From: a virus
Lineage: Duplodnaviria; Caudoviricetes
DNA length: 64,000 nucleotides
Direction: 5' to 3' (one strand)
Virus record (IMG/VR): IMGVR_UViG_3300028048_003161
A model generated the notes under the pieces. The model was not told the origin of the DNA, ran no database searches, and saw only the letters and a list, made by a program, of their open reading frames with translations. Numbering within the stretch: position 1 is the first letter of the stretch; each line of letters starts with the position of its first letter. Of the stretch, positions 4,332 through 48,935 are shown one piece after another. Both the position numbers and the translations under genes were made by a program.

Positions 4332-5192
4332 ATGTTAGTAACATGTATAAATAGAGAGCGCAACAGTAGTGGACAAATATTATACTATGATATAATGGAT
4401 GAAAGCAATAATAAAATTAGGTTAACATCTGAACAACTGAAGAGTGCAATTAGGAATAAAAAGTTCATCTGTACAAATTTAACATTAACAAAGAATAATA
4501 GGCTAATGCTTACTAAAACAAAAGCAATTGCATATGAAAATAGTGAAAATAGACACCTAGCAAATAATTTGTCACAGTTGGATTTAAGCAAGCTAACACT
4601 AGATGAAATAAAAGCACACATGGAAAGAGTAATGCAGGCATATATAAAAGTAATGTTTAGGTCAAATAATCAGTTAACTTGTTGTGTAGGGCATTTACCT
4701 TTAATAATGGATAGGCTTGAGGATGGTGGTGTAGGGTTTGACATACCCTTACCTCTAAAAGATATAGACAATAAATACTTGAAGGGCTTTGACAGAGATG
4801 GGGAGTTCATCTATATGGAAATAAGTCCTGCACAGCCTAATTTGCTATATAACATATGTGACTTATATAGGCATTATTCACTCAAGACTACAGTGATACC
4901 TAATTATGATACAGTATTTGACTTACTAGGTAAAGCACTAGGAAAAGCTTGGGGCAGTAGTTTCGTAATAGATGAGCTGTGGTCACAAGATGCTGGACAA
5001 TATTGTTTAGTTTATAACATAGATGCTAAAAATGCAGTAGCATCACTAAAAAGTACCTTGCATGGATATGAGTGCATTATTGAGAAAGATAGTCATAGTA
5101 AAAGTGTAAGGATAGACACACTTACAAAAAATATATCACAGCAGAAAAATGTGTATACATTATTATATTGTTTAGCACAGCAGATAAAGTGA
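4332..5192 (+). CDS. orphan family A member 1 (shared N-terminal module plus CCxGH domain)
   Basis: RBS AGGAGG; shares TC..R..G.I.YY...D...T..LK...C.NL.LT...RL, CCVGHLP, PLP and HGYE with 6024 and 6966/7189. Confidence 0.8.
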   Translation: MLVTCINRERNSSGQILYYDIMDESNNKIRLTSEQLKSAIRNKKFICTNLTLTKNNRLMLTKTKAIAYENSENRHLANNLSQLDLSKLTLDEIKAHMERVMQAYIKVMFRSNNQLTCCVGHLPLIMDRLEDGGVGFDIPLPLKDIDNKYLKGFDRDGEFIYMEISPAQPNLLYNICDLYRHYSLKTTVIPNYDTVFDLLGKALGKAWGSSFVIDELWSQDAGQYCLVYNIDAKNAVASLKSTLHGYECIIEKDSHSKSVRIDTLTKNISQQKNVYTLLYCLAQQIK

Positions 5193-5204
5193 ATGCAGTG
5201 GAGG

Positions 5205-5935
5205 ATAAGTAGGAGATGCATAGGAGTAAAAAGGGAGACACAGTGGTACTTAAGAACAGTTGCATAGGAGTAAAAAGAAAGTTGCATCACTAAACAAGTG
5301 GTTTAATCATATACAATAAAGCAGATGCATAGGAGTAAAATGGTGGATTCCTAGCAAATACTAAATAGGTGCACTGGTATAAAAGGGTTGATGTACCACT
5401 ATTGAAGGATAGTTGCATAGCAATAAAGTGGGTGATGCATAGCAAATAAAAAGCTGATACATAGTTGAATGATAAGTTTAACTCCTCTATTAAAACAGAT
5501 GCACTAGTGGAAAAAGCTGATGCATCACAGAGTAAAAATTGAGACATAGGTGAAAAAGAGCAGATGCATCACTTTGTTAGTTGTTTAGCTTTACTATTAA
5601 GGGTTGATGCAATACAGAGTAAAAATGCTAGCATAGGAGGATATGGGTTGATGCATAGCAAAACCAAAATAGATGCATTACTAAAATAAAGCTAATGCAT
5701 CGCTAACAGATGGTTTAGCATAGGAGGATATGGGATAATAAACATATGTACATTGGAAGATAGGTGCTAATACATAGCTAACTTAAAATTGATGCATAGC
5801 AACTTTAAAATTGATGCATAGCAACTTTAAAATTGATGCATAGCAACTTTAAAATTGATGCATAGCAACTTTAAAATTGATGCATAGCAACTTTAAAATT
5901 GATGCATAGCAAGCTTAAAACTTGTGCATTACAAT
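5205..5935. repeat. GATGCA-core array I, ~22-bp period, ending in 6 near-perfect copies of AAAATTGATGCATAGCAACTTT
   Basis: GATGCATAGC at 5791, 5813, 5835, 5857, 5879, 5901; degenerate cores at 21-22 bp spacing back to ~5215. Confidence 0.9.
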
Positions 5936-6023
5936 AAAATTGGTTTAACTCTTATAACTTAAGGTTAAGCATAGAAACAAAAACTTATAAACATAGCAAA
6001 TTGGGAAAGGCAAGGTACAAACT

Positions 6024-6944
6024 ATGAGATTAACATGTACAAATAAGTTTAGAAACATGAATGGTAAAATCATGTACTATGAAGTTAAGGATGAGCATAA
6101 CAGTTATTACACAGTGACACCTCAAGATTTAAAGAATAAATTGAGACAGCCTGGAGTTACATGTACAAATTTGAAACTTACATCAAATGGTAGGTTAATA
6201 AGCAGTGGTTCAAGTAATATGTTTAGCAAGTTGAATCTTGAGGAGCATGTATCTGGAGATGCTCTTGCAATAGCATTAACTAAGGCTTTGAGGCAGAATA
6301 TAAAAATTCCTTCTAATGGATACGTTGATCACTGTTGTTTTGGTCATTTGTTAATGATAGCTGACTGGGATGATCCTGTTGACAGATATGATGAATATGG
6401 GGATATGTACACCGTAACAATAGATATGCCATTACCTACAAATGAGATAGACCCTAATTTGTTAAGGAATTACACAATTAAAAATGGAATGGTACAGTCA
6501 ATGTACAATAATAACAATAAGGAAATGTTAGCTGACTTGTGTGCAATTTATAATACATATGCACTAAAGAGTACAGACATTATAGGGTATAGTACAATGA
6601 GTGTATTATTAGAAAAGGCACTAGTAAAGTCAGTAGAGGGTTTAAAGTATAAGAGTAATGGCAGAATGTGGGAAATGGAAGCATATGGAGGAGGACCTTG
6701 TGGTGCAGCAGCTCTGGGAGGTTGGACCTGTGATACTTGGGAGGCAGGCGATCTGTTAATAAAGCTGATGAGTCATGTTTGGGGATATGAGATAGTAGTA
6801 GAGGATGAAGATCATCCTGGAAGGTTTAGACAGACAATGCAGATAAAAAGAGGTACATTGGATAAGAAAAAAGTGACAATTGAAATGTATAACTTCTTTA
6901 GAAGGACAATATCAAATTATGTAAGAATGACAAATAACGACTAA
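6024..6944 (+). CDS. orphan family A member 2
   Basis: Same N-terminal module; CCFGHL, MPLP and SHVWGYE motifs. Confidence 0.8.
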   Translation: MRLTCTNKFRNMNGKIMYYEVKDEHNSYYTVTPQDLKNKLRQPGVTCTNLKLTSNGRLISSGSSNMFSKLNLEEHVSGDALAIALTKALRQNIKIPSNGYVDHCCFGHLLMIADWDDPVDRYDEYGDMYTVTIDMPLPTNEIDPNLLRNYTIKNGMVQSMYNNNNKEMLADLCAIYNTYALKSTDIIGYSTMSVLLEKALVKSVEGLKYKSNGRMWEMEAYGGGPCGAAALGGWTCDTWEAGDLLIKLMSHVWGYEIVVEDEDHPGRFRQTMQIKRGTLDKKKVTIEMYNFFRRTISNYVRMTNND

Positions 6945-6965
6945 AGTAGTTGGAGGACAGCATAA

Positions 6966-7884
6966 ATGATGAAAACAACCTGCATTGAAAAACAAAGATA
7001 TAAAGGTGGAAAGATTGTCAAATACATCATTAAAGACCTTAAGTCAGGTCAATATTTTGAGTTTACACCTGCTGAATTAAAGAGTGTCATTAGTTCAGGA
7101 AATATGGAATGTGATAACCTAATGTTGACAAAAGACAATAGACTTATGGATAAGAAAAAAACCACATCAATGTAAAGCAGAAGATGCAATGTGGGATACA
7201 TTTAATAAAATAGGCATTACTGATATGAGCATTGCAAAATTAAGAAAGTACTTACAGAGTAGACTTGGACTTCCTATGAAGCCTTTGAAAACGAAGGTGA
7301 GTGGTGAATATTGTTGTGTGGGTCATTTACCTATGTACATTGAGATTCTCAATGATCAATATGATGGAGTTTATTTTGAGTGTCCTTTACCTGTAGTTGA
7401 GATCAGTAACAAATATTTAGAAGGCTTCATATATAATGCTAAGTCATGTAATTTTATAGTTTATGGGGAGGACTTAGAACAAATAGACAAGGTTTTGGCA
7501 ATATACAAGCAGTATGCATTAGGTGATAAGGTAATTGCAGGCTTTGATGAAATAGTGAGTATTGCATCAAAGGCAGGAAAGTACATATCAAATCACTATG
7601 GGATTGGCATGAGTTGTAACATAGAAAATTGTGATGGACAGTTAGCATGTAAAGTAATGGTTGGTTTAGAGGAGGATTTTCCTGCATACTTAATCATTAA
7701 GAGTCATACATGGGGATATGAGATGAATGTACATTATAAACCACTCAATGGCAATGAAGAAATCAGAGAGACAGTTAAAATTAAGGGGAAAGATAACAGA
7801 GACATTAAGGAGGACCGAATGGACATTTATAGAAAGATGGTAAGAATGTTGGAAAGAGCAGTAGTAGAGCAGTGGACAGCATAA
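6966..7884 (+). pseudogene. orphan family A member 3, split at A7 (7155-7161)
   Basis: 6966-7175 is the N-terminal module and 7189-7884 has CCVGHLP and SHTWGYE. Removing one A gives a ~305-aa ORF, matching the 306-aa paralog. Confidence 0.75.
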
Positions 7885-7980
7885 GGGTTGCAGCAGGGTT
7901 GCAATGTGTTTAGTGCGACTAGCAGCCCTGTATAAAGTTAATCACTAAAAAAATAATTAAGCAAGCGGGAGGAATTAAGA

Positions 7981-9551
7981 ATGCTAGCAACTCATAGAGT
8001 GAGAGACAATAATAAAACAATTGGGTTTATAGTGAATGGAGTGTTTGCATCAAATATAACCATTAGACAGAATATAGGGCTGATTGACAATTTAAAAATC
8101 ACTAAGAATGGAGTAATCAAGGCAAAAAGAGATTACCCGAAGTTACTTATAGGGACAGTGTAATAAGGAGTCTGTACAATAAACTAATGAAGAATAATCC
8201 TTTTGTAAGAGATATTCAAAAGGACTTAACGCGCTGGAAACAAGACCCTGAGCATGGAATTTTACAGTTAGAGGGAGCAAGACAAATAGGCAAAACAACA
8301 GAAATATTGAAATTTGCATACAGAAATTATAAGTATGTTATCTATGTAAATTTAGCTAGTGACATGTATAAGTTTCAAAAAGCATGCGAGCAGGACATTA
8401 ATTACTTTACAATGCTTGACTATACAGAAAGAGCACATTTACCAGGGTATGTTGACAATAGGGATACAATACTAATTATTGATGAGATTCAAGAGAATAT
8501 GGAAATGTATAACAACATTAGAACATTTGCAAATAATCTAAATTGTGAAATCGTAGTAACAGGAAGTTACTTGGGCAGATTGTTAGCTGGGCTAAAGAAA
8601 CCAGATGAGGACACAGATAAAAAGGCATTTATACCTACTGGAATAGACCTATTAAATATGTATCCTTTATCATTTGCAGAGTTTTGCAGAGTTTTTAATG
8701 CAGAGGACACATTAATGAGCATAAGTTTATATGGAGAGTCATCTGACAGGAAATATAAGAAACTTGATAAGCTGTATGATATATACAGACAAATAGGGGG
8801 TTATCCAGCAGTTATAAAAGAATATATTAAGACACAGGATATAAGTGCATGTCATATGAGAATTGGAAACTTACTTGAATTATTCAAGGCAGAGTCTAGA
8901 GAATATTTTCATGATGAGGTGGAGATAGAAATATTTGACATGGTATATGATTATACACTTTATGAAATGTGTTCAAATCATGCTGGAACAGCTAAGAGGA
9001 CCATAAAAGATGTGACAAGAATAGTAGAAGATAAAACAAAAGGCATGACATCAACTAGGGAGTTGAGAAATGCAATCACTTGGCTAAGGTATTCGGGTAT
9101 ATTGGGTACTTGTATATTGGCAGAAAATGGAGAGACATCATTCTCTACAGTAAAAAAGTTTTACTTTTTTGATTGTGGCGTTACATCTTATTTGGCTAAG
9201 AGAGCAAATATAGATGCTAGCAGTCTAGATGGAATAATTACAGAGACATTTGCATTTGATGAGTTGATAAGATTATACAGTAAAAATACAAAAGATCCAA
9301 AAGTTAGACCTTATTTGTACTATGGTAGACTTGGTAATTACGAATTAGACTTTTTGGTTTGCAGTACAGACAATAAGAAGTATGGAATAGAAATTAAAAC
9401 TAATACAGGAGATCCTAAATCTCTAAAGCAGTTTTTGAATAAAAGGCTTGTAGATAAGGGGATAGTTGCAAAAAGAACAAAGGGTGGGCACTCTGAAAAA
9501 TTGGATACAATACCAATATACACAGTTGGTTGCAGATTTCCTTATAAATAA
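7981..9551 (+). CDS. AAA ATPase (AAA_14-like) plus DUF4143-like PD-(D/E)xK domain; upstream leader ORF 7981-8163 separated by a frameshift at A5 (8124-8128)
   Basis: Walker A GARQIGKTT, Walker B LIIDEIQ, VTGS, GGYP, C-terminal ELDF...IEIK. Adding one A reads AKKRLPEVTYRDSVIRSLYNKLMKNN into ORF 8187. Confidence 0.8.
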
Positions 9552-9576
9552 CAAATAAGTAGGAGGATTTGATAAT

Positions 9577-9913
9577 ATGTCATCATACAAAGTAGTAACA
9601 GCTCAGGGAAAAGTTGAGGTAGTTGAAGCAAATTCACCTTTAGCAGCAGTGGAAAAAATATACTAGCACTGTATTAGATTTAAGCATAAAAGCAATAAGA
9701 CTAACAACAGAAGAAGCAATGAACAGTGGTTGGCAGTTTAGAGCAGAGCTATTAGAGAATGGGGCTAAGGCTAAAAAGAGTTATTACAGAGTAGAGGATA
9801 GAGAGGAATATGAAATTAGCATAAACAATTTTTTTTACCGGACAAGATCGGAAATGAATAAAAATTATATAAATATGTATAATATACAGTTTCAAGTCAG
9901 AACTATACATTAA
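9577..9913 (+). pseudogene. small hypothetical gene split at A6 (9653-9658)
   Basis: AGGAGG RBS plus ATG 9577 (MSSYKVVTAQGKVEVVEANSPLAAVEK); removing one A joins it to ORF 9719. Confidence 0.55.
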
Positions 9914-10212
9914 GAACACTTTTCTGAAAAGGGAGTAAATTAGCAACAGGCAGACATTAACACCCTACACTATTGTGATTATTTGATTCTACATTACAAT
10001 TAGATTCTGATATAAGAATATAGCACTCAATGTTGATTGTGTTTTAAAATTTAGAAATCTACATTAAAAATTGGTATTTTGACATAAAAATAAAAGTCAT
10101 TATACATGAAATGTGATTTTCAAGTAATACATTAAGTGTTAAATGTGAGATTCAAATACACATAGATAAATTAGATAAGCGTTAGATAAAAATTAAATAA
10201 CATGAGTAAATT

Positions 10213-10275
10213 ATGAGTGCAGTATAAGGTTATTGTTTAGACACAACAATAATTCTATATTGCACTTATTTTATT
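10213..10275 (+). terminator. long hairpin/terminator
   Basis: GAGTGCAGTATA...TTATTGTT...AACAATAA...TATATTGCACTT followed by ATTTT. Confidence 0.5.
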
Positions 10276-10318
10276 ATGTAATACATTAGTAACTGCATTG
10301 AGATTGTGATATTTGTCC

Positions 10319-10347
10319 TTGACAAATGATGGAAAATGTGCTATAAT
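10319..10347 (+). promoter_or_regulatory. consensus sigma-A promoter upstream of the family B cluster
   Basis: TTGACA-17 bp-TATAAT with TGn extension. Confidence 0.85.
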
Positions 10348-10497
10348 GATAATAGAAATTTTAGAGAAGTTTTATGGGCTATATGAAAACTAGTTATCAA
10401 TTATGCTTAGCATGAAATAAAAATAACTAGACACCTAGCAGTTATAGTATCATTAAAAATAGTAGTTTGCATTGATTAAATTAACATAGTCATTACT

Positions 10498-11142
10498 ATG
10501 TTAAGGTTTAACAGTGGATATAGCAGGAGTAGTTTAATGTTAGAACTTCAAATAGTAGAGAATGGACAAGAAAAAATAAAGATAGAATTATTGCAGAGGT
10601 TAGTTAGGTGTCCTATAGAGAATCCTCACAGTATTAGATACACTATGATTAAGGATAATGTACCTACAAATGTTTATGTTGACATGTGGGGTGATGAGAA
10701 CATCACATATAGTAAGTTAGCAACTTCTTTTGGTACAATAGATTTATGCTTAGACTTTGTGATGGGGCGTATAGCAATTGTTGATTTTAACAGTACAAAA
10801 GAGACAGAACAGAGATTAAATAAGCAGTTGCAATGTTTGTCAGATGAGGACAATATTCTAGTAAAGACAGACAATGAGATATTTAATGTTAGCAGTTTAT
10901 TTGATGTTATGCTAATTACAAGTAATGATAATTTCAGTACAGAAGTTAAGACTGCAGGTGGTGTAGCTAAGATGTACTTGGAAATAATAGATAGAAATAC
11001 ATTTATAAGAAATCATTGGGCATATTATTGTATAAATAATATAAAGGTAGAACAGTTAGAAGAGACTTTCTACTTTTTGGATATAAGAGGACTTTCGAAT
11101 ATTACAGTGGAGCAAGGACAGGATGAAAATGAGCAGTATTAA
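10498..11142 (+). CDS. orphan family B member
   Basis: LQIVENGQEKIKIEL ... NILVKTDNEIFNVSSLFDVMLI. Confidence 0.7.
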   Translation: MLRFNSGYSRSSLMLELQIVENGQEKIKIELLQRLVRCPIENPHSIRYTMIKDNVPTNVYVDMWGDENITYSKLATSFGTIDLCLDFVMGRIAIVDFNSTKETEQRLNKQLQCLSDEDNILVKTDNEIFNVSSLFDVMLITSNDNFSTEVKTAGGVAKMYLEIIDRNTFIRNHWAYYCINNIKVEQLEETFYFLDIRGLSNITVEQGQDENEQY

Positions 11143-11806
11143 AGAGAAGTTAAACATGGCAAGATTGAGCATCACTAAAAAGAAAAATAAATTAGATAGT
11201 TGTACATTAACAATTATTGAGAATAGCAGAGTCAAAGTGGTGTTTGACTTCAATAAACCCCTTTGGAATGGTAGGTTTATTAGCAATCACAATATTGTAG
11301 GTTTACATACACTAATAAATGGTAGGAAAGGCATAAAATTTGTTACAGCAACCACTAGTTCAAGGTGTGTATTCACCAAAGATTGTGATCACTACTTACA
11401 ACTAACATATAACTTTGGTACAATACTCGTGGAGTTTAATAGTAGAGGCATTGTCTATGGACTTTGGATGTCTAATAAACCTTTTTGGTTTACAGAGAAA
11501 TACACATGGAAAATAAAAGATAAGCATGCAATTACAGAGAAGGACAATATAATTTTAGAGGTCAACGGTGATAAATATGACTTGTTTAATGATATGGACA
11601 ATACAATGGTAATGCAGGTGATTGGACGAGATGTAAATAATACATATAGATTGGTGAATGAAGAATGTGAAGTTTGTTTGGAAATTGATTCAGATAAACA
11701 AGACACAGAGGATAAAAAGGGTATACCTTATTTCTTTAGGGCGCAACTTGGCAGGGATTCAAGAGGAGCATTTACTAATGGGTGGCTTTTAAGTAAATGT
11801 AAATAG
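11123..11806 (+). CDS. orphan family B member
   Basis: LTIIENSRVKVVFDF ... NIILEVNGDKYDL..MVMQVIG. Confidence 0.7.
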   Translation: MKMSSIKEKLNMARLSITKKKNKLDSCTLTIIENSRVKVVFDFNKPLWNGRFISNHNIVGLHTLINGRKGIKFVTATTSSRCVFTKDCDHYLQLTYNFGTILVEFNSRGIVYGLWMSNKPFWFTEKYTWKIKDKHAITEKDNIILEVNGDKYDLFNDMDNTMVMQVIGRDVNNTYRLVNEECEVCLEIDSDKQDTEDKKGIPYFFRAQLGRDSRGAFTNGWLLSKCK

Positions 11807-11848
11807 ACATATAGAAAAGAATAAGGGGCATAGGAAGTAGAACATAGT

Positions 11849-12347
11849 ATGGAAATAACGAGACTTAAGGTAATTGAGAATGGACAATTAACATATAACC
11901 TGGACTTATCAGAAAAAAGTGTTTATACACAGAGGAATGGTTGGAATGGTTTGCAACATACCTGCAGTTGTGAATGGTAAGAAGCAAATATTAGAAATAA
12001 CAAGCATTAAGGTTTTTGATTTATTAAATTGTCAAATAAATTTGTCATTTGGTAATTTGTTCATAAGATTTAATAAAAATGGCATACTGACTAGTGTGTG
12101 TCTTGAGAATTATGTTCCTTATGGACATGTTCAAAAAGTGTATAGACTTGATAAAGATAACAATGTGCAAATAGAAACAGACGAAGGTACATATGACATT
12201 GATGAGACAATCAGTGTAAAGTTTATGTTGGACAATGTAGAGTATGATAAGTTCATACACCTGGATGCTAACTCAACATTAAAACTTTTTAAGGAGTCAA
12301 GTAAATGTGGATTTCCTGCACTAATGTGGGAAGTTGAAAACTGGTGA
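11849..12347 (+). pseudogene. orphan family B member split at A6 (11913-11918)
   Basis: ATG 11849 gives MEITRLKVIENGQLTYNLDLSEK (family N-terminal motif); removing one A joins ORF 11919 (NVQIETDEGTYDIDETISVKFML). Confidence 0.7.
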
Positions 12348-12410
12348 TTAAGAAGTGAGGACAGACAGTACTAGAAAATGGTATGACAGGATAATGGAAA
12401 AGATGGACAG

Positions 12411-12935
12411 GTGGAAAAGATGTTTATATTTAATAGAAAGAAAGATTGGGACACTGCAAAGTATACATTGACAATGATATTAGATGGGCAAGAAGTTTTT
12501 ACAGTGGACCTTACTGAAAAGTTGAACAAGCATAAAATTAAGAATTGGATCCGATGTTCTAAAGAAGTAAAGGAACGAATTGAGTTTATCATGGATGGTG
12601 TGCAAGTATCACTTCTATTTGTTGGTATCATCATTACATTTAACTTGAATACCTTGGGTTATGTGACAGGGATAAGCATATGGGGAAGTTTTAATTTTGC
12701 AGACTTAGATGAGGCTAGTGATATAATTTTAAGACTTAACGATGAGGAGTTTAGTGCATATGACATAATAAACATGGCTAATATGTTGGGTATGAGAAAT
12801 GGATATAAAGCAGATGGCAGTTACTTCACAGTGAATACACATGATGAAATACTTCTTGACAGTTTGACAATTAACTTTGGCAGTACTATAAAGTGGTCTG
12901 ACATGATCAATCAGAAGATGCAGCATGAGGGATAG
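12411..12935 (+). CDS. orphan family B member
   Basis: LTMILDGQEVFTVDL ... IILRLNDEEFSAYDIINMANMLG. Confidence 0.7.
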   Translation: MEKMFIFNRKKDWDTAKYTLTMILDGQEVFTVDLTEKLNKHKIKNWIRCSKEVKERIEFIMDGVQVSLLFVGIIITFNLNTLGYVTGISIWGSFNFADLDEASDIILRLNDEEFSAYDIINMANMLGMRNGYKADGSYFTVNTHDEILLDSLTINFGSTIKWSDMINQKMQHEG

Positions 12936-13179
12936 GATCAGGGAGAATAAAAAGATTGACCTTAATGAAATAGTTAGTTTGGCTCAAATGTTGGGTGCTG
13001 GCTATGATAAGGAGTATGTTACAGAGTATAATAATGCAGTTGCACGATTGGCTATGACTAGACTTAACTATTCAAACAGAGATGCAATAAAGCTTGAGAT
13101 TGATATTGATTATACTAAGTTAGACAAAGAGGAAGAAGAGTGGTTTAATAAAGTAATAGGAGAAACATTGGGAGTTTAG
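12925..13179 (+). CDS. orphan family B, C-terminal half only
   Basis: KKIDLNEIVSLAQMLG matches the family C-terminal motif. Confidence 0.55.
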   Translation: MRDRIRENKKIDLNEIVSLAQMLGAGYDKEYVTEYNNAVARLAMTRLNYSNRDAIKLEIDIDYTKLDKEEEEWFNKVIGETLGV

Positions 13180-13261
13180 ACAATAGACAGGAGGATAAAT
13201 AGTGGACAGGGGATAGTAAAATAGACATGAAGGATAATGAAACAGACAGGAGGATAAATAG

Positions 13262-13822
13262 TTGATATCATTAAAAGTGTTTAGCGATACGAAAGAAATG
13301 AATTTTGATATAGGTAAAAGGGTCAAAATGCAGACAAATGGTGGACTAGTAGAGACAGATACTGGACAGATAGAAATGAATTATAGACATATAACATGTT
13401 CTAAGCATATAAGTAAACTCCTTGGCTGTAAGTATATTCATGAGTTCCTTGGTTCTTCTGTATTGTCATTTAGAATAGATGAGACAGGCAGTATTAAAGC
13501 TATTTATTTTACATTTGGAGTTGATTCTTATGCATCACATAAAGTAGGACAAGCAATGGGAAATGGAGAGATACAGAGGAGTTCAGAGTTTATAATTATA
13601 ATAAATGATGAGGTCATTGACATAAATGAAGAATTGGCAGTGTTTAATATGTTAGGATATACTGAAGGAGTTTATGACATTGATAGTAAATATGTCACAG
13701 CAACATATGAGGTAAAGAAGAGTCCTTCCATAGGTAGTATGTATAAGACACTTGTTACAGTGGAGATAAAATGTGAGCAGGGTTTTGACAAGTTAGAAAA
13801 TTTGGAGGACAAACAGGTTTGA
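13262..13822 (+). CDS. orphan family B member
   Basis: AGGAGG RBS, TTG start; IIIINDEVIDINEELAVFNMLG. Confidence 0.7.
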   Translation: MISLKVFSDTKEMNFDIGKRVKMQTNGGLVETDTGQIEMNYRHITCSKHISKLLGCKYIHEFLGSSVLSFRIDETGSIKAIYFTFGVDSYASHKVGQAMGNGEIQRSSEFIIIINDEVIDINEELAVFNMLGYTEGVYDIDSKYVTATYEVKKSPSIGSMYKTLVTVEIKCEQGFDKLENLEDKQV

Positions 13823-38790: not shown

Positions 38791-38820
38791 ATGATAATTG
38801 AGTCATAGGAGGATAAAAAT

Positions 38821-39315: not shown

Positions 39316-39330
39316 AGGTCAAGTTGGTTT

Positions 39331-40155: not shown

Positions 40156-40192
40156 ATCATAGAAATTGTACAATTAAAATAAAGGAGAGGCA

Positions 40193-40774
40193 ATGGGAGT
40201 TTATTATAAGAGCAAGTTCACAGATTTTGCAGCATCTGAACCTCCTTACACAGACACAGTTTATTGTAAGGATGAGAATAGAACAGTTTGTATAATACAT
40301 ATAGATGAAAATTGGAACATGTACGGAGAAGTAATTGACCCTTACGATTTGTTTATTAGTCCTGTAAAACCTATATTTGGACCATTAAATCAAGAGCAGT
40401 GTGAGCGTATGTTGATGAAAGATGCACCTAAATCTAACAGGGTGGATGTAATGAGAGAACTTGATATGGAGTTTATGGACTATGCAAAATTGATGTATTG
40501 CACTAGGTTAATAAATCTCATTAACAATTATTGGCTAGCATGGTCAGAGGATGATAAGGTTGAGGACTATCATCCTAGGTTTAATAAAGAGATCATGAAG
40601 GAAAGAGAGGCAAGCATGATAAAACTTGACCCTGAGCCTGAAGATTTGGAACCTAGCACACCTTATTGGGTGCCTGACTGGAGTAAGAGTATGGAAAACT
40701 TTGATAGACCAGAGATCAACAGTGAGATTGATACATCAGACATGGAATTTGGTAGTTCAAGGTTTGACACATAA
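40193..40774 (+). CDS. putative partner of the HipA-like kinase (resembles the N-terminal coupling domain)
   Basis: Follows the kinase; R.DV...L...D..KLM..TR..NL.NNYWL resembles the N-domain end of Firmicute HipA-like kinases. Confidence 0.5.
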   Translation: MGVYYKSKFTDFAASEPPYTDTVYCKDENRTVCIIHIDENWNMYGEVIDPYDLFISPVKPIFGPLNQEQCERMLMKDAPKSNRVDVMRELDMEFMDYAKLMYCTRLINLINNYWLAWSEDDKVEDYHPRFNKEIMKEREASMIKLDPEPEDLEPSTPYWVPDWSKSMENFDRPEINSEIDTSDMEFGSSRFDT

Positions 40775-40804
40775 TACATCAAGAAGAAAAGGTAAACACT
40801 AGAA

Positions 40805-41065
40805 ATGGAACTATTTTGCATTGTATATTATATTTGCAGCTATATTGCAGGAATACCTGCTATAGTAAAATTGATTAAGACAAAGAAAAGTAATGACTAT
40901 TCATTAGCAGAGGCAATTATAACAATAGTTGGAACAACTTCATGGACAATATACATTTTCAGTACAAGTCAAAGCATATGGGTTTATGTGGGCACAATAC
41001 TAGATCAAGTTATTGTACTTGTCTGGGATGGATTAATCATTAAATATTTCAAGAAAGAGCAGTAA
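40805..41065 (+). CDS. PQ-loop/SemiSWEET-type 3-TM transporter
   Basis: 86 aa, 3 TMs, IPAIVKLIKTKKSNDYS, W.IY. Confidence 0.7.
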   Translation: MELFCIVYYICSYIAGIPAIVKLIKTKKSNDYSLAEAIITIVGTTSWTIYIFSTSQSIWVYVGTILDQVIVLVWDGLIIKYFKKEQ

Positions 41066-41076
41066 CAAATGAGGGA

Positions 41077-42465
41077 ATGAACATGAGTAGAGCAAGGACA
41101 CAGTATAAACTTGTTGGAAGATACTTAAATGGTAATGACACTAAATACTATGGTTTAGTATCAGAGGATAATAAACAGGTTAAATATACAAGTGAGCAAA
41201 TGGCATTTGCTGTAGGTAGAGAACAAGTAATAAATGTTAAAGCACAGTTATATAATGGCAAAGTACTGTTTAGAGGAACAGACTGTGACATTAGAAATTT
41301 ACCTACTATACAATTGAATAATAATGTAGTAACTAAGGTAAGTAATAGTAAGAAAAAAGAAATAACTAAAACTACAATGACAAAAGAACTATATATGATA
41401 ATTTGTAGTAACAAAAGTATAGGTATACTCGAAGATTACTTATTTTCATGCAAGTACAATGATGAAAATAACTCTATGTATATTACTGAACAGTACAAGC
41501 ATTCATATGGAAGTGATTTAACACAATATTTCTTTGGTGATGACGAAAAAGTACAAAGGTTTATACTGACAGATGATAATGATTATTTCTATTTAAAATA
41601 TGCAGACACTAATGAAACACTAGTAAAGACTAAAGATAAAATGCTAATTCTAAATTTATTAAATATAACAGACAAGCAAATAAAATCGGTATCAACACTA
41701 GAAGATTCATTGGATTTTATAAAACAGTCTTTTTCAGACTTCTGTGGGTCAGCAAATTATGCAGTTATTACATCTGCAATGCGAGGAGAAGATTATCAAA
41801 GCTTTAGCTTTGATACAGCATTACAGTTAATGGAAATATGTATAATGGAAATGAAGTATGTAAATATTACGAAGAATAAAAGTTTAGACAGTACATATAA
41901 GAGCTACATATTTAGAGGACAAGGAATACAGAAAGGAAGTATTGAGGACCATTCATTTAAGAGTACTACAACAAGTTTAAATGTTGCAAAAGAATATGGA
42001 AAAAATGGCATTATACTTGCAATTAAAAATGTAAAGATACGTGATATTATAAATGTACAAAGCGTAGCAGGATATGATAAAGATTTTATTTACTACGAAC
42101 ATGAATTATTATTAAGGGACTTTAGTATTTTACATATTGAAAATCAAATAGGTGTAATATCAAATATTCCTGTATATTCAGCTAGACTAGAAATGCCTGA
42201 CTACACTACTAGATTAAAGATGATACTAAAACAATTCACTGATGCATATGGAAAAAATGTACAGTTCGAAATCATTAAGCTTATACTAGGTAATCTAAAA
42301 TCACTATGTAACATAACTATAAATTGGGATGGTCTAGAATTAGAGGCACTAAATGGTAATTTTGTGAATATAGCATTCACAAATGATAAAAACACAATTA
42401 TAATAGATGATATAACATATAATAATTATGATGTGATAAATGTATTAAGAAACAAACTAATGTAA
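41077..42465 (+). CDS. ADP-ribosyltransferase (R-S-E, VIP2/C3-like) with shared N-terminal module
   Basis: IFRG, FKSTTTSLNVAKEY, EHELLL catalytic pattern. Confidence 0.75.
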   Translation: MNMSRARTQYKLVGRYLNGNDTKYYGLVSEDNKQVKYTSEQMAFAVGREQVINVKAQLYNGKVLFRGTDCDIRNLPTIQLNNNVVTKVSNSKKKEITKTTMTKELYMIICSNKSIGILEDYLFSCKYNDENNSMYITEQYKHSYGSDLTQYFFGDDEKVQRFILTDDNDYFYLKYADTNETLVKTKDKMLILNLLNITDKQIKSVSTLEDSLDFIKQSFSDFCGSANYAVITSAMRGEDYQSFSFDTALQLMEICIMEMKYVNITKNKSLDSTYKSYIFRGQGIQKGSIEDHSFKSTTTSLNVAKEYGKNGIILAIKNVKIRDIINVQSVAGYDKDFIYYEHELLLRDFSILHIENQIGVISNIPVYSARLEMPDYTTRLKMILKQFTDAYGKNVQFEIIKLILGNLKSLCNITINWDGLELEALNGNFVNIAFTNDKNTIIIDDITYNNYDVINVLRNKLM

Positions 42466-42602
42466 ACAAGTAATTGTATAAAGAAACATTACAAGGATTC
42501 ACTTTTAGATTAAATCAGCAGGGCATAAAAAGGAGAGGCATAGCAAGTAAGGCATAGTTAAGTAGAATTAGACATTAAACATTATGAAAGGAGCACTAGC
42601 AG

Positions 42603-43169
42603 ATGATAGTTTATCATGGTAGTAACAGCAACTTCAGGAAGTTAAAAATAAGCAAGTCCTTGGTTAAGCATACTAGTACATTGGGTAATGAGGGGTTAGG
42701 AATTTATTTCAGTACAGATCCAAGTGTAGCTAATTCATATGGAAAATACTTATATACATTGGAGATAAATGACAGAGCCTTTGTTGATATGAGAAAGAAA
42801 ACAAATTGTACAAAATACATTAGGAAAATAATAGGAGCAGTTTACAAGGAAACAGGTGTCAATATAGGTATGTATTTTGACTTTCAATCTACTATAGACA
42901 GACTCTATTATGGTGGACAAGCAGTGTTTTCAGTAGGGCATGACATAGCTGAAGTGCTAGATAACACAGATGAATTTTATGATAGTGGTTTAAGTCAAAC
43001 AAAGAAAAGCAATGTTTATAGAGTATTAAGACATATGGACAAGGAATGTCCTAAAGCTTATATGTTTAATTATCACATTAAGAACATTGGAGTTATAAAG
43101 GATGTCTCTGAAGAATATGTGAGAATCATTAAAAGAGAAAACATAGGCTTTGGAGTAATAAGTGGGTAA
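42603..43169 (+). CDS. ADP-ribosyltransferase-fold protein (H-Y clade, DUF3990/PolyVal-ART-like)
   Basis: VYHGS, G.GIYFS, A.SYG. Confidence 0.7.
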   Translation: MIVYHGSNSNFRKLKISKSLVKHTSTLGNEGLGIYFSTDPSVANSYGKYLYTLEINDRAFVDMRKKTNCTKYIRKIIGAVYKETGVNIGMYFDFQSTIDRLYYGGQAVFSVGHDIAEVLDNTDEFYDSGLSQTKKSNVYRVLRHMDKECPKAYMFNYHIKNIGVIKDVSEEYVRIIKRENIGFGVISG

Positions 43170-43233
43170 CAATTAGACATGAAAAGAGGCATTTGGAAAT
43201 CAGAAAGGCACATGTGAGAAAGAGGTATTTGAC

Positions 43234-44112
43234 ATGAAAATTTTAGTTGTAGTCACTAACATATTTGTGTTTCTCGAGGAAACATCAGTGATTAAACAGT
43301 TAGGTTTAGCAAGGAACAGGGTTTATTATACAATCAATCCTAATTATGTTAAGTCAAGAACAACTAAAAACAACTTAATACATGATATTAACAGACTTGG
43401 TCTTGGTTTAGAATATATAACATGGGGCAGAATAAATGAGAGTACCTGGGATGTAATGTTATGTTCATCATATGCAGGTGATGGTACATATGAGAAATTG
43501 ATTAATACAAGAGTAAAAGTGAATGTACTCGTAGAGGATGGTAGCTATGACTACTTCACAGAGAATGTGTCGCATCCTGATTTTGTAAGGGGAAAGAATT
43601 TGTTTTTGTTTAGACCTCAAAACAGTGTGGCTGGTAGCATTTACAGATCAGTAAGACCTATAAAAATTGATGCTGATATGCAAAGAAGAATTATGAGTTT
43701 GTACAGTGATCAATTGAATGTCTTTAATAGATTACCTAATGGGTCATGTATTTTGTTTACTAGTCCATTGGAATCAGACTTTGGTATCATGGATCATGAG
43801 AAACAGGCAGTTGAGTTTATGGAAAAGAACTTTAGAAATAGAGTAGTAATACTTAAGAAACATCCAAGAGACTTAAGTGAGTACAAGTCAAGGCATCTTG
43901 ACATTGTGGAATGTAGCACTAATGTCCCTGGTCAGATACTTGATATTTTGTTTAATGGACCTAAGGTATTTACTTTCCCTTCAACAATATGTTTTATGAG
44001 TGGTAAGGTAAATGATATGCTTTTATTAAGAATGAAAACACATAATAAAAATTACAATGACTTCTATGAAAAAGTAGGTAGACTAAATTGTTTTAGGACA
44101 GTCATGATTTAG
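43234..44112 (+). CDS. GT-B sialyltransferase-like glycosyltransferase
   Basis: VEDG..DY and KKHPRD, the (D/E)(D/E)G and HP motifs of bacterial sialyltransferases; FPST. Confidence 0.65.
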   Translation: MKILVVVTNIFVFLEETSVIKQLGLARNRVYYTINPNYVKSRTTKNNLIHDINRLGLGLEYITWGRINESTWDVMLCSSYAGDGTYEKLINTRVKVNVLVEDGSYDYFTENVSHPDFVRGKNLFLFRPQNSVAGSIYRSVRPIKIDADMQRRIMSLYSDQLNVFNRLPNGSCILFTSPLESDFGIMDHEKQAVEFMEKNFRNRVVILKKHPRDLSEYKSRHLDIVECSTNVPGQILDILFNGPKVFTFPSTICFMSGKVNDMLLLRMKTHNKNYNDFYEKVGRLNCFRTVMI

Positions 44113-44138
44113 AAAAAGTAAGCATGGAGGCTTAGACA

Positions 44139-44564
44139 ATGGGCATATTTGAAATGTTTAGTAGCAGAAAAGATTACAAGAGAGAAGAAGAGATTGAACG
44201 TAGTAGGTCTGGAATAATACAAGAGGTTGAGAGAGGAAACCTTAGTATGAAAGACCTAGACAGGAGACAAAAGTTGTGCAACAAGATTGTTACTGTAGAA
44301 AAGACAGGTAAGATTGGTCAATGTCATATAGTTGCAGTAGTGATTAGCATGGCAGATGGTGACGACTACATAGTAGAGGATTGTACAGGTAAGAGGTTTA
44401 TTGTTGATAAGGCATCAACTTTTGAATTAGCAAAGAATAAAAAGATTGAAAACATTAAGTTTGTGAAAGATCACATTCAAGGTTATAATGGTTTTAGGTT
44501 GGGTTCATTACCTCATGTCTATTATAAAGAGGCATTGGAAATGTTAAAACAACATAAAAAATAA
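44139..44564 (+). CDS. hypothetical protein carrying the shared module
   Basis: IVAV...YIVEDCTGK...TFELAKNKKIENIK...RLGSLP. Confidence 0.65.
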   Translation: MGIFEMFSSRKDYKREEEIERSRSGIIQEVERGNLSMKDLDRRQKLCNKIVTVEKTGKIGQCHIVAVVISMADGDDYIVEDCTGKRFIVDKASTFELAKNKKIENIKFVKDHIQGYNGFRLGSLPHVYYKEALEMLKQHKK

Positions 44565-44600
44565 AAGAAAGGATAATGAAACAAAAGGAGGAAAGACATA

Positions 44601-45662
44601 GTGAAGAAAAGGCTAGTAATTTTAGGAGTGATTTGTACAATGTTGTTTAGTTGTACAGCTTGTTCAGATTCAAGTTCAACATTGAATGGAGCAGTTGATG
44701 CAAGTGTAAGTAGTGGTTCAAATGCATTTGGTGTTGCTGAGAAAAGTGAAAGCAGTGATAATTACGAATATGACAGTGGAGATAGTGATTATGACAGCAA
44801 TAGTGATGAGAGCGACACAGGTGATAATGAGAACAACAGCAAGACTGAAGAGGCAAACATTGACACAAAGGCTAAAAACATTAATGATAAACTAGTATAC
44901 AGTTATGATATTGAGTATACAGTTTATGGAGAAAAGAATAAGAACAAAGCAATTAAGAAAGTAGATGATGCAATTGAAAATTACAATGGCTTCATTGAAA
45001 ATTCAACTAGTTCAGAGTATAATTGCAGAGTGACAGTAAGAATCCCTAGTGAATACAGAGATAAGTTTGTTGAGGCATTAACAAACAAGTTAGATAAAGA
45101 GAATTATAGGATAAACAAGCAGGTTGAGAATTTGAAGTCAACATATGCTGATTACAAGAGACAGTATGAGATTGCTAAATCAAATTATGAAGCATACAGT
45201 AAATTGTTAAAGCAGGCAGATGAATTAAAAGATGTGCTTGAGATAACTAATTATGTGAACACTGCTAAACAAACAATGGACGATATGGAAAGACAGATGC
45301 AGGATATTGATACTGATGTAGCATATTCAACTATTGTGGTAGACATTAACTTTAATAGTGATGACATTAGGAGGTCAGAAGATGAGCCATTGATAAATCA
45401 AGCAATACATGCCTTTAAAGATGGAATAAGATCATTCTTTTTATTGATTGTTAATTTATTGTTATTCATTATTGGTAATCTGTTATACTTATTAGTATTT
45501 GGTTTAATCATTTGGTTTATTGTGGCTAAACACAAGAAGAAAAAGAGACAGAAACAAGAAAAGAATTCAGCAGTGGAAAATAAAGAAAGCACAGAGAATG
45601 AGAAAGCAAATACATCTGAAGTTGAAACAATTACAGTGGATATGAATGAGAACAGTAAATAA
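44601..45662 (+). CDS. DUF4349-like lipoprotein
   Basis: Lipobox CTAC, acidic linker, TVRIP, DVAYSTI, C-terminal TM. Confidence 0.75.
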   Translation: MKKRLVILGVICTMLFSCTACSDSSSTLNGAVDASVSSGSNAFGVAEKSESSDNYEYDSGDSDYDSNSDESDTGDNENNSKTEEANIDTKAKNINDKLVYSYDIEYTVYGEKNKNKAIKKVDDAIENYNGFIENSTSSEYNCRVTVRIPSEYRDKFVEALTNKLDKENYRINKQVENLKSTYADYKRQYEIAKSNYEAYSKLLKQADELKDVLEITNYVNTAKQTMDDMERQMQDIDTDVAYSTIVVDINFNSDDIRRSEDEPLINQAIHAFKDGIRSFFLLIVNLLLFIIGNLLYLLVFGLIIWFIVAKHKKKKRQKQEKNSAVENKESTENEKANTSEVETITVDMNENSK

Positions 45663-45681
45663 TTAAATACAACATATAAGT

Positions 45682-45752
45682 AAAAGACATATACATTTGG
45701 TTTAGTGTATATGTCTTTTTATATTGAAAAATAGGGTAATAAGTGTTATAAT
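45682..45752 (+). promoter_or_regulatory. terminator followed by a sigma-A promoter for the NADAR gene
   Basis: AAAAGACATATACA...TGTATATGTCTTTTT; TTGAAA-17-TATAAT at 45724-45752. Confidence 0.7.
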
Positions 45753-45783
45753 ATAAGTAAAGAGTTAGGAAAGGAGATAAGAC

Positions 45784-46263
45784 ATGATCAAGTTCAGTCG
45801 GGCGCATGGTAAATACGCGTGTTTCAGTAATTTTTATCCTTGTGAGATTTTGTTCGGTGGTATGCACTTCAAGAACAGTGAAGCAGCTTGGCAGGCATTA
45901 AAGACACTTGATGAGAATGAGAGACTTTCATTTCAGAATTTAGGACCTTCTGAAGCAAAGAAAAAGGGAAGAAGTGTTAAGTTGAGAGAAGATTGGGAAC
46001 TTGTTAAGTACAAGTTGATGGTTGCAGTCTGCTTGGCTAAGTTTAGGCAAAATCCTGATTTAGGAAAGATTCTGCTTGAGACAGGCGATGAGGAGATTCA
46101 GGAGAACACTACAGGTTGGCATGACAACATCTGGGGTCATTGTGAGTGTCCTAAGTGCAGAGATAAGAGTTACACTAACTTACTTGGTAAAGCACTCATG
46201 GAGGTCAGAGACTTTCTGAAAACAATGGATGACATGGGAAAAGGTTGGAAAGTAGAAGACTAA
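45784..46263 (+). CDS. NADAR family protein (YbiA-like)
   Basis: FSNFY, SEAAWQA.K, AKKKGR.V.LREDW, AKFRQN, LLETG, DNIWG, NLLGKALMEVR. Confidence 0.93.
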   Translation: MIKFSRAHGKYACFSNFYPCEILFGGMHFKNSEAAWQALKTLDENERLSFQNLGPSEAKKKGRSVKLREDWELVKYKLMVAVCLAKFRQNPDLGKILLETGDEEIQENTTGWHDNIWGHCECPKCRDKSYTNLLGKALMEVRDFLKTMDDMGKGWKVED

Positions 46264-46293
46264 ACAGTAGAGAAAAGGAATAGGACAGTTAAA

Positions 46294-46950
46294 ATGAAAA
46301 ACAAGACATGAAGAAAGAACAAACTTGTCATGGTAGTTGCAATTTGTTTAATGATGTGTACACTGGTTGGTGGTTGCGGTATCCTTGATTCAAAGGTAAA
46401 TGACATTAAAGGTAAGCTTGTAGGAAATGACTACAACATTTACTTTTATGATAACTTTGGTAACAAGACAGGGTTTGTGTCAGGTGAAAAAGTAGGTATG
46501 ACGGGTAATCCGATTAAGGTGCAGAGTGTATCTGATAGCGGAGACATCATTACTACATATCAGCTCTCATCAATTATTACACTTAACATTGATGGTCATG
46601 AACTGGAGACTTGTGGAGATACAATGATCTGTGCTCAGAAAGGACTTGAGCCTGATGTAGATTTTAAGTCATCTGATATTATCAGTGAGTCATCAGGAAA
46701 ATTAACAGACAATGCTGCAATTTCAGGGTTTGTCAATAAGTACAAGAATATGTTTGGCAAGTCACGTGTAATTGTGGTTAAGTCACAGTTAGGACAACCT
46801 ATTACAGCATATTCAGGAGAAAAGGTCTATTGGGAGGCTCCTGAGGACCTTCCTAAAATGACAAAGCTTATGATTGATGGTAAGGCTTTATATGTGCATA
46901 GAGATAACTTTCAGATTATAGATAAAGGCTTATTGAAAAATGCAGAATAA
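46294..46950 (+). CDS. DUF5052-like lipoprotein; signal n-region interrupted by TGA at 46309
   Basis: Lipobox VGGC; KSQLGQPI.AYSG, LPK.TKLMIDGKALYVHR.NFQIID. Confidence 0.7.
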
Positions 46951-46963
46951 GCACTAAGGCAGA

Positions 46964-47001
46964 GCACCCTGCAGTGAAAACTGTGGGGTGTAATTTTGTT
47001 T
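46964..47001 (+). terminator. Rho-independent terminator
   Basis: GCACCCTGCAG-tgaaaa-CTGTGGGGTGT followed by a T-rich tail. Confidence 0.75.
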
Positions 47002-47066
47002 ATAGCTGTGGCATTGATAAAAATTGGGTATGCAGTATAAGATGTGCATTGGTAATTTTAGGTATA

Positions 47067-47095
47067 TTGACAATTTATTAAATTTGTGATATAAT
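47067..47095 (+). promoter_or_regulatory. consensus sigma-A promoter
   Basis: TTGACA-17-TATAAT with TGn. Confidence 0.85.
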
Positions 47096-47273
47096 ATGGT
47101 AAATGAAAGACCTTATGTAAGAAAGAAAGTTGACTAGCCACAAAGTAAGAAAATACATAATTTTTGAGTGACATGCATATGTCAAAAAATTAGATATGCA
47201 GTGGGGTCAAAATTGGGTACGACATAGGAGTTAAAAAATTAAAAATTTTTAATAGGTTGGAGGTACATATGAT

Positions 47274-47603
47274 ATGCTAGTGGACATTAAGGAAGTGAGG
47301 GATGGACTAAGGATAAGAGGGGCAACACCTTGGAAATCTTTTGACTATGGTGTTTGTGATGACTACACTTAGGTACTGGAGAAATACAAAGAGGAAATTA
47401 AGAGTAACAAGAAATATGTGGTTGTGTTACAGGTCATTCATAAACAAGGGAAATCTAGTTTAGATGGGTGGAAATGGAGTAAGCATGGTCCATATATTGG
47501 TAAGCAGAAACAAGAAGCAGAGTACTTGTTTAATGAACCTTTAATCACAGAGGTTTATGAATATAGCATTTTTGAATTAGGAGGACATGAAAATGAAAAG
47601 TAA
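47274..47603 (+). pseudogene. small phage-type hypothetical gene with internal TAG (47370)
   Basis: GGAGGT RBS; MLVDIKEV...YGVCDDYT*VLEKYK... in frame with ORF 47418 (GWKWSKHGPYIG). Confidence 0.6.
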
Positions 47604-47952
47604 AAGCAATGTAGCAGGAAGAATGAAAAGTAAAAGCAATGTAGCAGGAAGAATGGACAGCAAGATTGTTGCAATGAACAACAGAAGAAAAGTAACTGAC
47701 ATGAGCGAAGAGAATAAGAGACAGGCATGGAAATGGATTGGTATTTTTGTAGGTGTTATGTTACTTTTGATTGTAGGTGGTTACTTTGCAGTTCCTGCAA
47801 TCAGACAGGCAGAAATAGGTGTTTGGCAGGCATTTATGAGAAAGTCAATTGGAGACAAAGTTGACTGCATCTTGATTGTTGTTTGTGCATTTGCATTTTT
47901 AATTTCAATCAATAGGACATTAAGAAAGGCAAGGCTCAACAGAGGGAAATAA
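47587..47952 (+). CDS. two-TM membrane protein with a 30-bp tandem duplication
   Basis: MKSKSNVAGR x2; two hydrophobic helices. Confidence 0.65.
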   Translation: MKMKSKSNVAGRMKSKSNVAGRMDSKIVAMNNRRKVTDMSEENKRQAWKWIGIFVGVMLLLIVGGYFAVPAIRQAEIGVWQAFMRKSIGDKVDCILIVVCAFAFLISINRTLRKARLNRGK

Positions 47953-48010
47953 AGGCAAGCAATAGAAAAATAAAGAGATTGCAATTAAAATAAAATAATA
48001 ACATTATTAA

Positions 48011-48052
48011 GAAACTAGTATACACAGCAATTTGGCGTATACTAGTTTTTCA
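48011..48052 (+). terminator. Rho-independent terminator
   Basis: AAACTAGTATAC...GTATACTAGTTTTT. Confidence 0.75.
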
Positions 48053-48206
48053 ATTTTATTGTAACTATAGGTGTACATGTGTATAAACTGGGCATACATT
48101 ATGGTTTATCTAAAGGAATATTAAATATAGGATTGACCCTCCTGTTGGCATAAAGTGGAAACAGAAATAAGTTTTTATTTATTTTTAATTTATGGGAGGT
48201 ATCTTT

Positions 48207-48935
48207 ATGTATATACTTGTTGCACGTATATTTGACAAGAGGGAGCTTGTTGGATATAAGATGAAAGACATGACAAATGGGGAGGCTCATCTTGTCACAA
48301 AAGGGGATGCATGTAGATTAGCAGCTAATGAGCAAATAGTTGATGTCAAGTGCATTCAGTCAAAATTAGGTTCAGATAGTTTAGTAAGTACTGGCAGTAC
48401 TAGATTGAGGGATTTGCCTAGGATTGATGCAAAGGACATTAAGAAAAAGTCAGTATCATCTAGTAAGTTCAAATACAGTGATAGGATAGCGTGTGTGATT
48501 AGGGATACCTGTAATAATAGAAAAATGAACACAGTGTATACAGAATCACACATTAAGGAAATTATTAAACAGGATGTAAATAGGGGAGTCATTGATATAA
48601 GTGAAAAGAACTCATTAAGTATGGGTATACTCATTAGAAAATGTGGGAGCAATGAGTATATGGTGCTTAATGAAAATGATTATGACCTGCCTTTTCATAG
48701 AATAGCAGATGATAAGGATAAAATAAAGCAAGTTGAGACATTGGGTAGCCATGATCAGCAGTTATTAAGTAAAGGTGAACTTGTATTATTGAGTTCTAAT
48801 CCTAAAATAAATTGTATATTCAGTAATGCACTTGTGATAGGTCCTACTAAATTTAGTAGATACACAGGTGGTTTAGAGGATTGGCTGAATCAGTTTAGTA
48901 TAGTATTTGGAAATAATGACGGACAGGATATATAA
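48207..48935 (+). CDS. hypothetical protein with shared N-terminal module
   Basis: YILVARIF..GYKMKD..GE..VTK...LA..EQIVDVK...RLRDLP; GGAGG RBS. Confidence 0.7.
   Translation: MYILVARIFDKRELVGYKMKDMTNGEAHLVTKGDACRLAANEQIVDVKCIQSKLGSDSLVSTGSTRLRDLPRIDAKDIKKKSVSSSKFKYSDRIACVIRDTCNNRKMNTVYTESHIKEIIKQDVNRGVIDISEKNSLSMGILIRKCGSNEYMVLNENDYDLPFHRIADDKDKIKQVETLGSHDQQLLSKGELVLLSSNPKINCIFSNALVIGPTKFSRYTGGLEDWLNQFSIVFGNNDGQDI

Follow-up and report, generated by a model that had tools for sequence, protein, structure and literature searches.

DUF3892 (Pfam PF13031) is a widespread, uncharacterized mobile-element and defence-linked domain. One study presents it as a meander-plus-helix domain fused to effectors and proposes it as an RNA or ribosome sensor (eLife 10.7554/eLife.108061), a preprint places its genes in CapH/CapP-controlled operons (bioRxiv 10.1101/2022.04.27.489752), and the account of Burroughs & Aravind 2020 (PMC7685563) is cited here as two other papers quote it. 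Here, we analyze a stretch of 64,000 nucleotides (the window) recorded as a virus of the Caudoviricetes (IMG/VR record IMGVR_UViG_3300028048_003161), in which two families of small protein modules, subtypes A and B, are related to DUF3892. The explanation that we favor as a whole, a DUF3892-like shared docking domain with swapped cargo, has in our estimate a probability of about 0.55. Its parts differ in strength: we are highly confident of the identity of the modules and of their modularity, while the docking mechanism is put forward tentatively, at a little under even odds.

A reading of the DNA letters alone (below, the sequence-only reading) had placed subtype A in the window genes 4332, 6024, 6966, and 7981, and subtype B in 41077, 44139, and 48207 (genes are named by their first position; coordinates are in Table 1). 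We find that the seven segments are one domain of about 65 to 80 aa, in which a meander of three strands is followed by a helix and by one or two more strands, 7981 belonging to it only probably and as a marginal member. Identity among the N-termini of 4332, 6024, and 6966 is 37-44%; they have 18 invariant positions in common and matched a 156-sequence A profile with E values of 1e-26 to 1e-28 among 528 window frames. The three B copies, namely residues 2-83 of 41077, the module of 44139, and that of the 48192-48935 gene, were likewise recovered with high significance by a 24-sequence B profile (E values in Table 1). AlphaFold predicts similar folds for the two subtypes, three strands and then a helix. 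In the A model (4332 residues 1-70, predicted local distance difference test [pLDDT] 88), the strands cover residues 2-10, 16-23, and 28-32, the helix residues 33-41, and two short strands residues 50-52 and 58-60; in the B model of 41077 (pLDDT 84), the strand-strand-strand-helix core is followed by a hairpin and a final strand. The ends of the modules differ in sequence: the motif N-L-x-L-T-S-D-x-R-L is almost invariant in subtype A, which ends in NLTLTSDNRL[IV]D, without the final hairpin and without LP, and a terminal L..LP motif is conserved throughout the 24-sequence B alignment.

The relationship between the subtypes was assessed by hhalign with an A profile deepened with 153 module segments from an exhaustive profile search, a B profile that combined the 41077 family with 11 other, distinct modules encoded by a metagenome-assembled genome (MAG; G001) of the Lachnospiraceae, and a true DUF3892 reference of ten proteins picked by the Pfam model from Lachnospiraceae genomes. 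The null consisted of 150 column shuffles, a lenient choice. A and B matched with a probability of 82-89% (P 1e-5 to 3e-6), at a score of 31.7 against 9.6±2.1 for the shuffles (maximum 17.9, n=150). B matched DUF3892 with 95.7% (E 1e-8) over 71 columns, the terminal L..LP included, at a score of 47.1 against 9.9±2.0. Compared directly, A and DUF3892 matched weakly (23.7%, P 8.5e-4), at a score of 22.9 where the shuffles reached 17.1 at most. Each of the three scores is above all 150 shuffles (about 10±2, maximum 18). The best non-self matches of each subtype hidden Markov model (HMM) are members of the other subtype, as holds already for small HMMs made from the window copies, and these cross-matches are reciprocal in three independent sequence sets. 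In addition, the alignment of A14-46 with B20-52 sets strands 2 and 3 and the helix of one AlphaFold model against those of the other, independent model, always offset by +6, a comparison of models that rests on element order and on mapping through the sequence alignment, and the lists of weak Protein Data Bank (PDB) matches of the two models overlap heavily (8tch_B, 6fto_B, 6m32_D, 6k9c_A, chromo/Tudor folds).

From these profile comparisons, we conclude that A and B appear to be divergent branches of the DUF3892 superfamily that are not modelled in Pfam, PHROGs, or NCBIfam, the link of A being weak when drawn directly and good when drawn through B. We also conclude that A has lost the last hairpin and is a shorter form, with NLTLTSDNRL in its place; B, as judged from its sequence, is a divergent full-length DUF3892 form that retains L..LP. 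It is very improbable, in our view, that chance or composition accounts for the likeness of A and B, as two small beta-rich domains of separate origin, with B alone being DUF3892-like. The shortness of the A-B alignment (33 columns), the 24% probability of A with DUF3892, and the leniency of column shuffling would allow it, against which stand a score about 10 standard deviations above the shuffles, the reciprocal cross-matches in the three sets, the exact alignment of secondary-structure elements, and the PDB neighbors common to both models. The resemblance to DUF3892 proposed in the sequence-only reading holds at the superfamily level. Its supposition that the two subtypes are homologous is supported by the hhalign results, and its supposition of varied cargo by the public data described below, so that the finding which it had named as its own refutation (subtypes without homology, each with one type of cargo) did not arise.

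Available libraries do not name these modules. No window copy reached the PF13031 cut-off of 22.3 bits, the closest being 44139 (18.9 bits, E 0.0022), and 4332, 6024, 6966, 7981, 41077, and 48192 gave no DUF3892 match in Pfam at E values up to 1. In G001, the Pfam model found one true DUF3892 protein and, at E values up to 0.001, none of the 14 B and none of the 13 A copies. PHROGs and NCBIfam hold no model for either module. A sequence-profile search of the PDB returned nothing for A and only noise for B, the ESM Atlas gave no usable match for either, and neither Foldseek (PDB and BFVD) nor VIA-align (48,161 chains) gave a match strong enough to name a fold family. To call this an undescribed system, as had been suggested, was too strong, given that fusions of DUF3892 with effectors have already been described.

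Modularity is most evident outside the window. A word-indexed protein search gave few relatives of 6966 and of the B alignment, and an exhaustive profile search was used instead; it returned 1232 A clusters (50% identity) at E ≤ 0.001; with the limit set to E ≤ 1e-10, 156 remained. The A module is N-terminal in 133 of the 148 top matches (90%). Among the top A proteins, 126 extend for 60 residues or more beyond the module; BLAST groups these extensions into 81 clusters, of which 67 have a single member. The sole recurrent Pfam cargo of A is the DUF285/BspA-type leucine-rich repeat (LRR; 18 proteins), with LRR_5; up to six consecutive A+DUF285 genes stand in tandem arrays in metagenome loci. 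Toxin families appear only as isolated matches among 149 proteins, and ten A-bearing frames (nine from G001, one from the Clostridia genome G295) have no Pfam domain whatever. In the 41077 family, the B module is 71-86% identical across 26 proteins, while the C-terminal parts form three unrelated groups (ADP-ribosyltransferase [ART]-like, weakly SprT-like, and other) behind low-complexity linkers. Linker composition differs by cargo class, suggesting recombination at the linker. After the module, linkers are either N/K/T-rich or P/V/K/A-rich, varying with cargo class (window 41326-41400, P0006-P0029). Varied cargo had been proposed from the window alone: for A, this fails in the window, which has one cargo type, and holds at database scale, where A has at least 81 clusters among 126 proteins and the 41077-type B at least three groups.

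Placement is less uniform for B, which also occurs at C-termini, alone, and in tandem, in B-B proteins about 185 aa long. The loci retrieved showed the following architectures (x, other sequence): A-x 59, BB 8, A 7, B 5, x-A 3, B-x 3, BB-x 2, x-BB 2, and AA 1. The claim that the module is N-terminal stands for the A copies, 41077, and 48192 and fails for 44139, in which a charged leader of about 50 aa precedes a module lying at residues 56-132 of 141. Stand-alone tandem B-B proteins were seen in unrelated metagenome loci (L005:1549-2106, L031:29-595, L033:1648-2211, L054:1664-2215), often beside A genes, and may be a conserved core protein of these elements. A 263-aa ORF (open reading frame) beside B genes of G001 (L001:1158-1949) has a module-like strand-turn-strand start, with E values of about 0.75-1 against the B and DUF3892 profiles.

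Within the window, the cargo of the A copies is the CCxGH domain, whose CC.GH, PLP, and GYE motifs are invariant in a 6-sequence alignment and which has no match in Pfam, PHROG, NCBIfam, or, by sequence, the PDB. The view that 6966 carries no cargo was mistaken: 6966 is the front half of a frameshift-split A+CCxGH gene, the frame switching to 7189 inside a poly-A run (near 7150-7165); read through, the gene matches P0032, an intact protein of 306 aa. Taking 6966 and 7189 as one gene, the window has three A+CCxGH paralogues and a single A cargo type. The split site at 7140-7175 reads …GATAAGAAAAAAACC…, and the frameshift could be a sequencing error, the mark of a decaying paralogue, or a slippage-prone switch. 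The module of 7981 survived only as a marginal, degenerate copy: against A, hhalign gave P 0.0026 and a score of 18.5 (10.0±2.1, maximum 16.8, for 100 shuffles), with a 9-residue deletion spanning strand 3 and the start of the helix. Its supposed fusion with an ATPase-nuclease was rejected, the ATPase (8187) being a separate ORF in a different frame, with a normal N-terminus that looks complete. The B cargo of 41077 had been called an ADP-ribosyltransferase, and here the residues alone agree: among 13 homologues, R280 and S296/S300 are invariant and E341/E343 nearly so, and no Pfam, PHROG, or NCBIfam model and no PDB sequence matched. The C-terminal ~165 aa of 48192-48935 are a cargo lacking a Pfam match.

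The two families occur together in other elements. The window has 3-4 A and 3 B copies, G001 has 13 and 14, and G152, an uncultivated virus genome (UViG) of 268 kb from IMG/VR, has 5 and 5; L031, L033, and L054 also carry both subtypes, as does L047, where the B matches are weaker. Only 2 of 400 species-representative Clostridia genomes have A, namely G001 and, with one copy, G295. This near-absence, together with the pairing of A and B, indicates that the families mark a kind of large element and not a host lineage. Related loci come from rumen, gut, and digester metagenomes and are mostly of 28-35% G+C; near relatives of window proteins lie on contigs of 457-550 kb. A typical A protein had no tblastn match in plasmid and phage collections. 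The A and B modules are a private feature of a class of giant low-GC extrachromosomal elements in Clostridia of the rumen, gut, and digesters, where they have been amplified and where there is tandem gene duplication and exchange of the part after the flexible linker. G152 is classed as viral, with a CheckV completeness of 89%; it had no HK97 capsid match and only a weak terminase match. The data support neither a phage identity for G152 nor its membership of the window's element family, and a giant element of plasmid-like kind may be the better description. Single in-frame stops lie inside otherwise good module matches in G152 (TAG, G152:C1:267056-267277) and in G001 (TAA, G001:C461:1846-2019), which may be decayed copies or cases of recoding.

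As for what the module does, its charge differs from that of the proteins to which it is joined: the median isoelectric point (pI) is 9.46 for A and 9.20 for B, against 6.37 and 5.71 for their own cargo and 6.10 for window proteins. The almost invariant polar motif N-L-x-L-T-S-D-x-R-L points to a functional surface, and the published proposal of DUF3892 as an RNA or ribosome sensor (eLife 10.7554/eLife.108061) is in keeping with a binding role. We propose that a conserved basic surface of the module would bind one shared intracellular polyanionic target, with a nucleic acid or nucleoprotein (for example, the ribosome or DNA of the element itself) as the likeliest candidate, and would hold variable partners there (LRR binders, the ART-like enzyme, a possible SprT-like peptidase, the CCxGH domain), while the stand-alone and tandem B-B proteins would sit on that target with no cargo attached. 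A more particular suggestion of the sequence-only reading, docking on phased DNA arrays, was not sustained, the GATGCA array being present in none of about 35 other module-bearing loci checked, most of them short. Several points weigh against our proposal as a whole. The direct match of A with DUF3892 is weak, and a positive charge would also suit contact with membranes or with acidic proteins. DUF3892 proteins encoded on chromosomes, at pI 6.1, are not basic, and the basicity of the modules may therefore be newly acquired. Finally, the strong N-terminal bias of A also fits an addressing signal.

That last observation belongs to an explanation in which the module is a delivery tag, recognized by an element-encoded machine (conjugation or Tad-like transfer, virion packaging, or export) that moves the cargo to another cell or compartment. 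Besides the N-terminal position, the great diversity of cargo behind a linker, as with polymorphic-toxin trafficking domains, the effector-like cargo (ART-like motif, weak SprT-like match), the confinement to mobile giant elements, and the Tad locus of the window speak for it. We nevertheless consider it unlikely. B is found at C-termini, in tandem pairs, and alone, which one would not usually expect of an export signal, the DUF3892 relatives on chromosomes are cytoplasmic and stand alone, Pfam finds no known secretion-marker family among module proteins, and the commonest A cargo is an LRR and not an enzyme or toxin. No tie between the module and a transport machine emerged, and the link to the Tad machinery in particular gains no support from G152, which has ten modules and no detectable homologue of the window Tad ATPase; Tad systems are not known as protein translocators. 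Similarly doubtful is a private sorting system in which A and B would be address labels, one receptor or machine of the element recognizing the basic module and gathering dozens of variable proteins (LRR binders, ART-like and peptidase-like enzymes) in one place or sending them with the element to a new host, and the B-B proteins acting as regulators or competitors. The many paralogues per element, the co-occurrence of A and B, the stand-alone and tandem forms, and the presence of related modules on sensor-like (LRR) and enzyme-like cargo would also suit a homotypic adaptor, in which modules bind one another (A-A, B-B, or A-B), in the manner of effector-associated or death-like domains, and assemble variable proteins or couple LRR sensors to enzyme effectors. 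This too we judge improbable, as the high net positive charge of all copies disfavors simple homotypic packing and, in the proteins sampled, the module is joined to neither an NTPase nor any other signalling core.

The tandem A+DUF285 arrays, with their constant N-terminus and variable C-terminus, and the viral class and CheckV completeness of one carrier contig could recall phage tail-fibre or tailspike anchors, by which A would attach variable LRR receptor-binding proteins to the particle. We give this very little credence: there is no structural PHROG in the window, the capsid and terminase results for G152 are as stated above, its A genes neighbor a NERD nuclease, an M15 peptidase, a class A penicillin-binding protein (PBP), DUF4349, and an AAA protein, which are not tail genes, cultured phage records gave no match, and enzyme cargo is unsuited to such a role. 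A polymorphic toxin reading was rejected, the back-to-back A arrays (intergenic gaps of 3-71 nt in L035) leaving no space for immunity genes.

Docking on a polyanion would be a specific prediction of the favored explanation, a basic module being set on acidic or neutral cargo, and a result on such binding would also bear on what DUF3892 does in defence operons. Were the module instead an addressing signal, a new effector-sorting system would be defined. In either case, two large domain families missed by current libraries (A alone with its 1232 clusters) are tied to DUF3892, and they offer a sequence handle for recognizing poorly known giant low-GC elements of rumen and gut Clostridia and for listing their variable proteins, most of which have no known domain.

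The window is of 33.7% G+C, has every long ORF on the + strand, and has the gene content of a mobile element (Table 1). A PHROG search found no phage structural family among its proteins, and 20 kb of it gave no megablast match in plasmid and phage records. The ART-PolyVal-like and NADAR genes sit between B-module genes, and neither has a module of its own. A DUF4349 membrane protein (44601-45662) directly follows the B gene 44139, and one also adjoins module genes in G152 (L022:13680-14834).

Table 1. Module copies, their cargo, and neighboring genes in the window, with one gene neighborhood of G152 (UViG)
Feature	Position	Strand	Basis or remark
Subtype A module, N-terminus of 286-aa protein 4332-5192	4332..4526	+	A profile E 9e-26
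CCxGH cargo domain of 4332, no known family	4527..5192	+	Invariant motifs
Subtype A module of 306-aa protein 6024-6944, remainder CCxGH cargo	6024..6221	+	A profile E 1e-26, alignment
Subtype A module, front half of frameshift-split A+CCxGH gene	6966..7175	+	A profile E 7e-28
CCxGH half of split gene	7129..7884	+	Annotated ORF 7189-7884, frame open from 7129
60-aa ORF, probable degenerate subtype A copy (marginal)	7981..8163	+	HMM E 0.04 within window
AAA_14 + DUF4143 ATPase, neighbor and not cargo	8187..9551	+	Pfam E 4e-17 and 2e-10
Subtype B module, N-terminus of 462-aa protein 41077-42465	41080..41325	+	B profile E 6e-38
Low-complexity linker and ART-like cargo of 41077	41326..42465	+	R-S-ExE motif only
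ART-PolyVal-like gene	42603-43169		E 3e-5, below cut-off
Subtype B module without cargo (141-aa protein 44139-44564, residues 56-132)	44301..44531	+	B profile E 3e-17
NADAR gene	45784-46263		E 1.5e-26
Subtype B module from Met6 of 48192-48935	48207..48437	+	B profile E 8e-22
Tad-type locus: TadZ/ParA-like gene; CpaF-like ATPase	55733; 56678		
Two Eco57I-type methylases, UvrD helicase, McrBC pair	In window		
HipA-like kinase	In window		
RecJ-like exonuclease	In window		
G152 A-gene neighbors: NERD nuclease, VanX-like M15 peptidase, 830-aa class A PBP	L022 3464-13561		

Among described domains, the best though weak structural neighbors of both models are chromo, chromoshadow, and Tudor-like domains and the N-terminal domain of SaPIbov1 Rep (8tch), all with three strands and then a helix. 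With polymorphic-toxin trafficking domains (LXG, PAAR, MIX), the module proteins share a layout in which an unvarying N-terminal domain is followed by a linker and by a C-terminal domain that can be exchanged, as in the 41077 family, with its closely similar modules and swapped cargo; unlike in polymorphic toxins, immunity genes would have no place, most of the cargo does not resemble toxins, no Pfam family of that kind is found, and B is also C-terminal and tandem. Polyvalent proteins, reportedly described by Iyer et al. in 2017 from phages and conjugative elements, have the same mobile-element setting and an overlapping set of effectors (the ART-PolyVal-like gene 42603, the NADAR gene 45784, the weakly SprT-like cargo), whereas module proteins are short (200-600 aa) and have one cargo each in place of multi-effector chains. 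The comparison with DUF3892 itself has two sides. No window copy passes the Pfam cut-off, A is without the last hairpin and LP, the modules, unlike chromosomal DUF3892, are basic and have been amplified, with 10-27 copies in an element, A stands in tandem arrays with DUF285 repeats, and the cargo set includes no Min-Wnt. On the other hand, B aligns with PF13031 over its full length, including the terminal L..LP, and the modules, like DUF3892 in its Min-Wnt-DUF3892 fusions and CapH/CapP-regulated operons, are small, stand alone or are fused to effector-like domains, and occur in a setting of conflict or of mobile elements.

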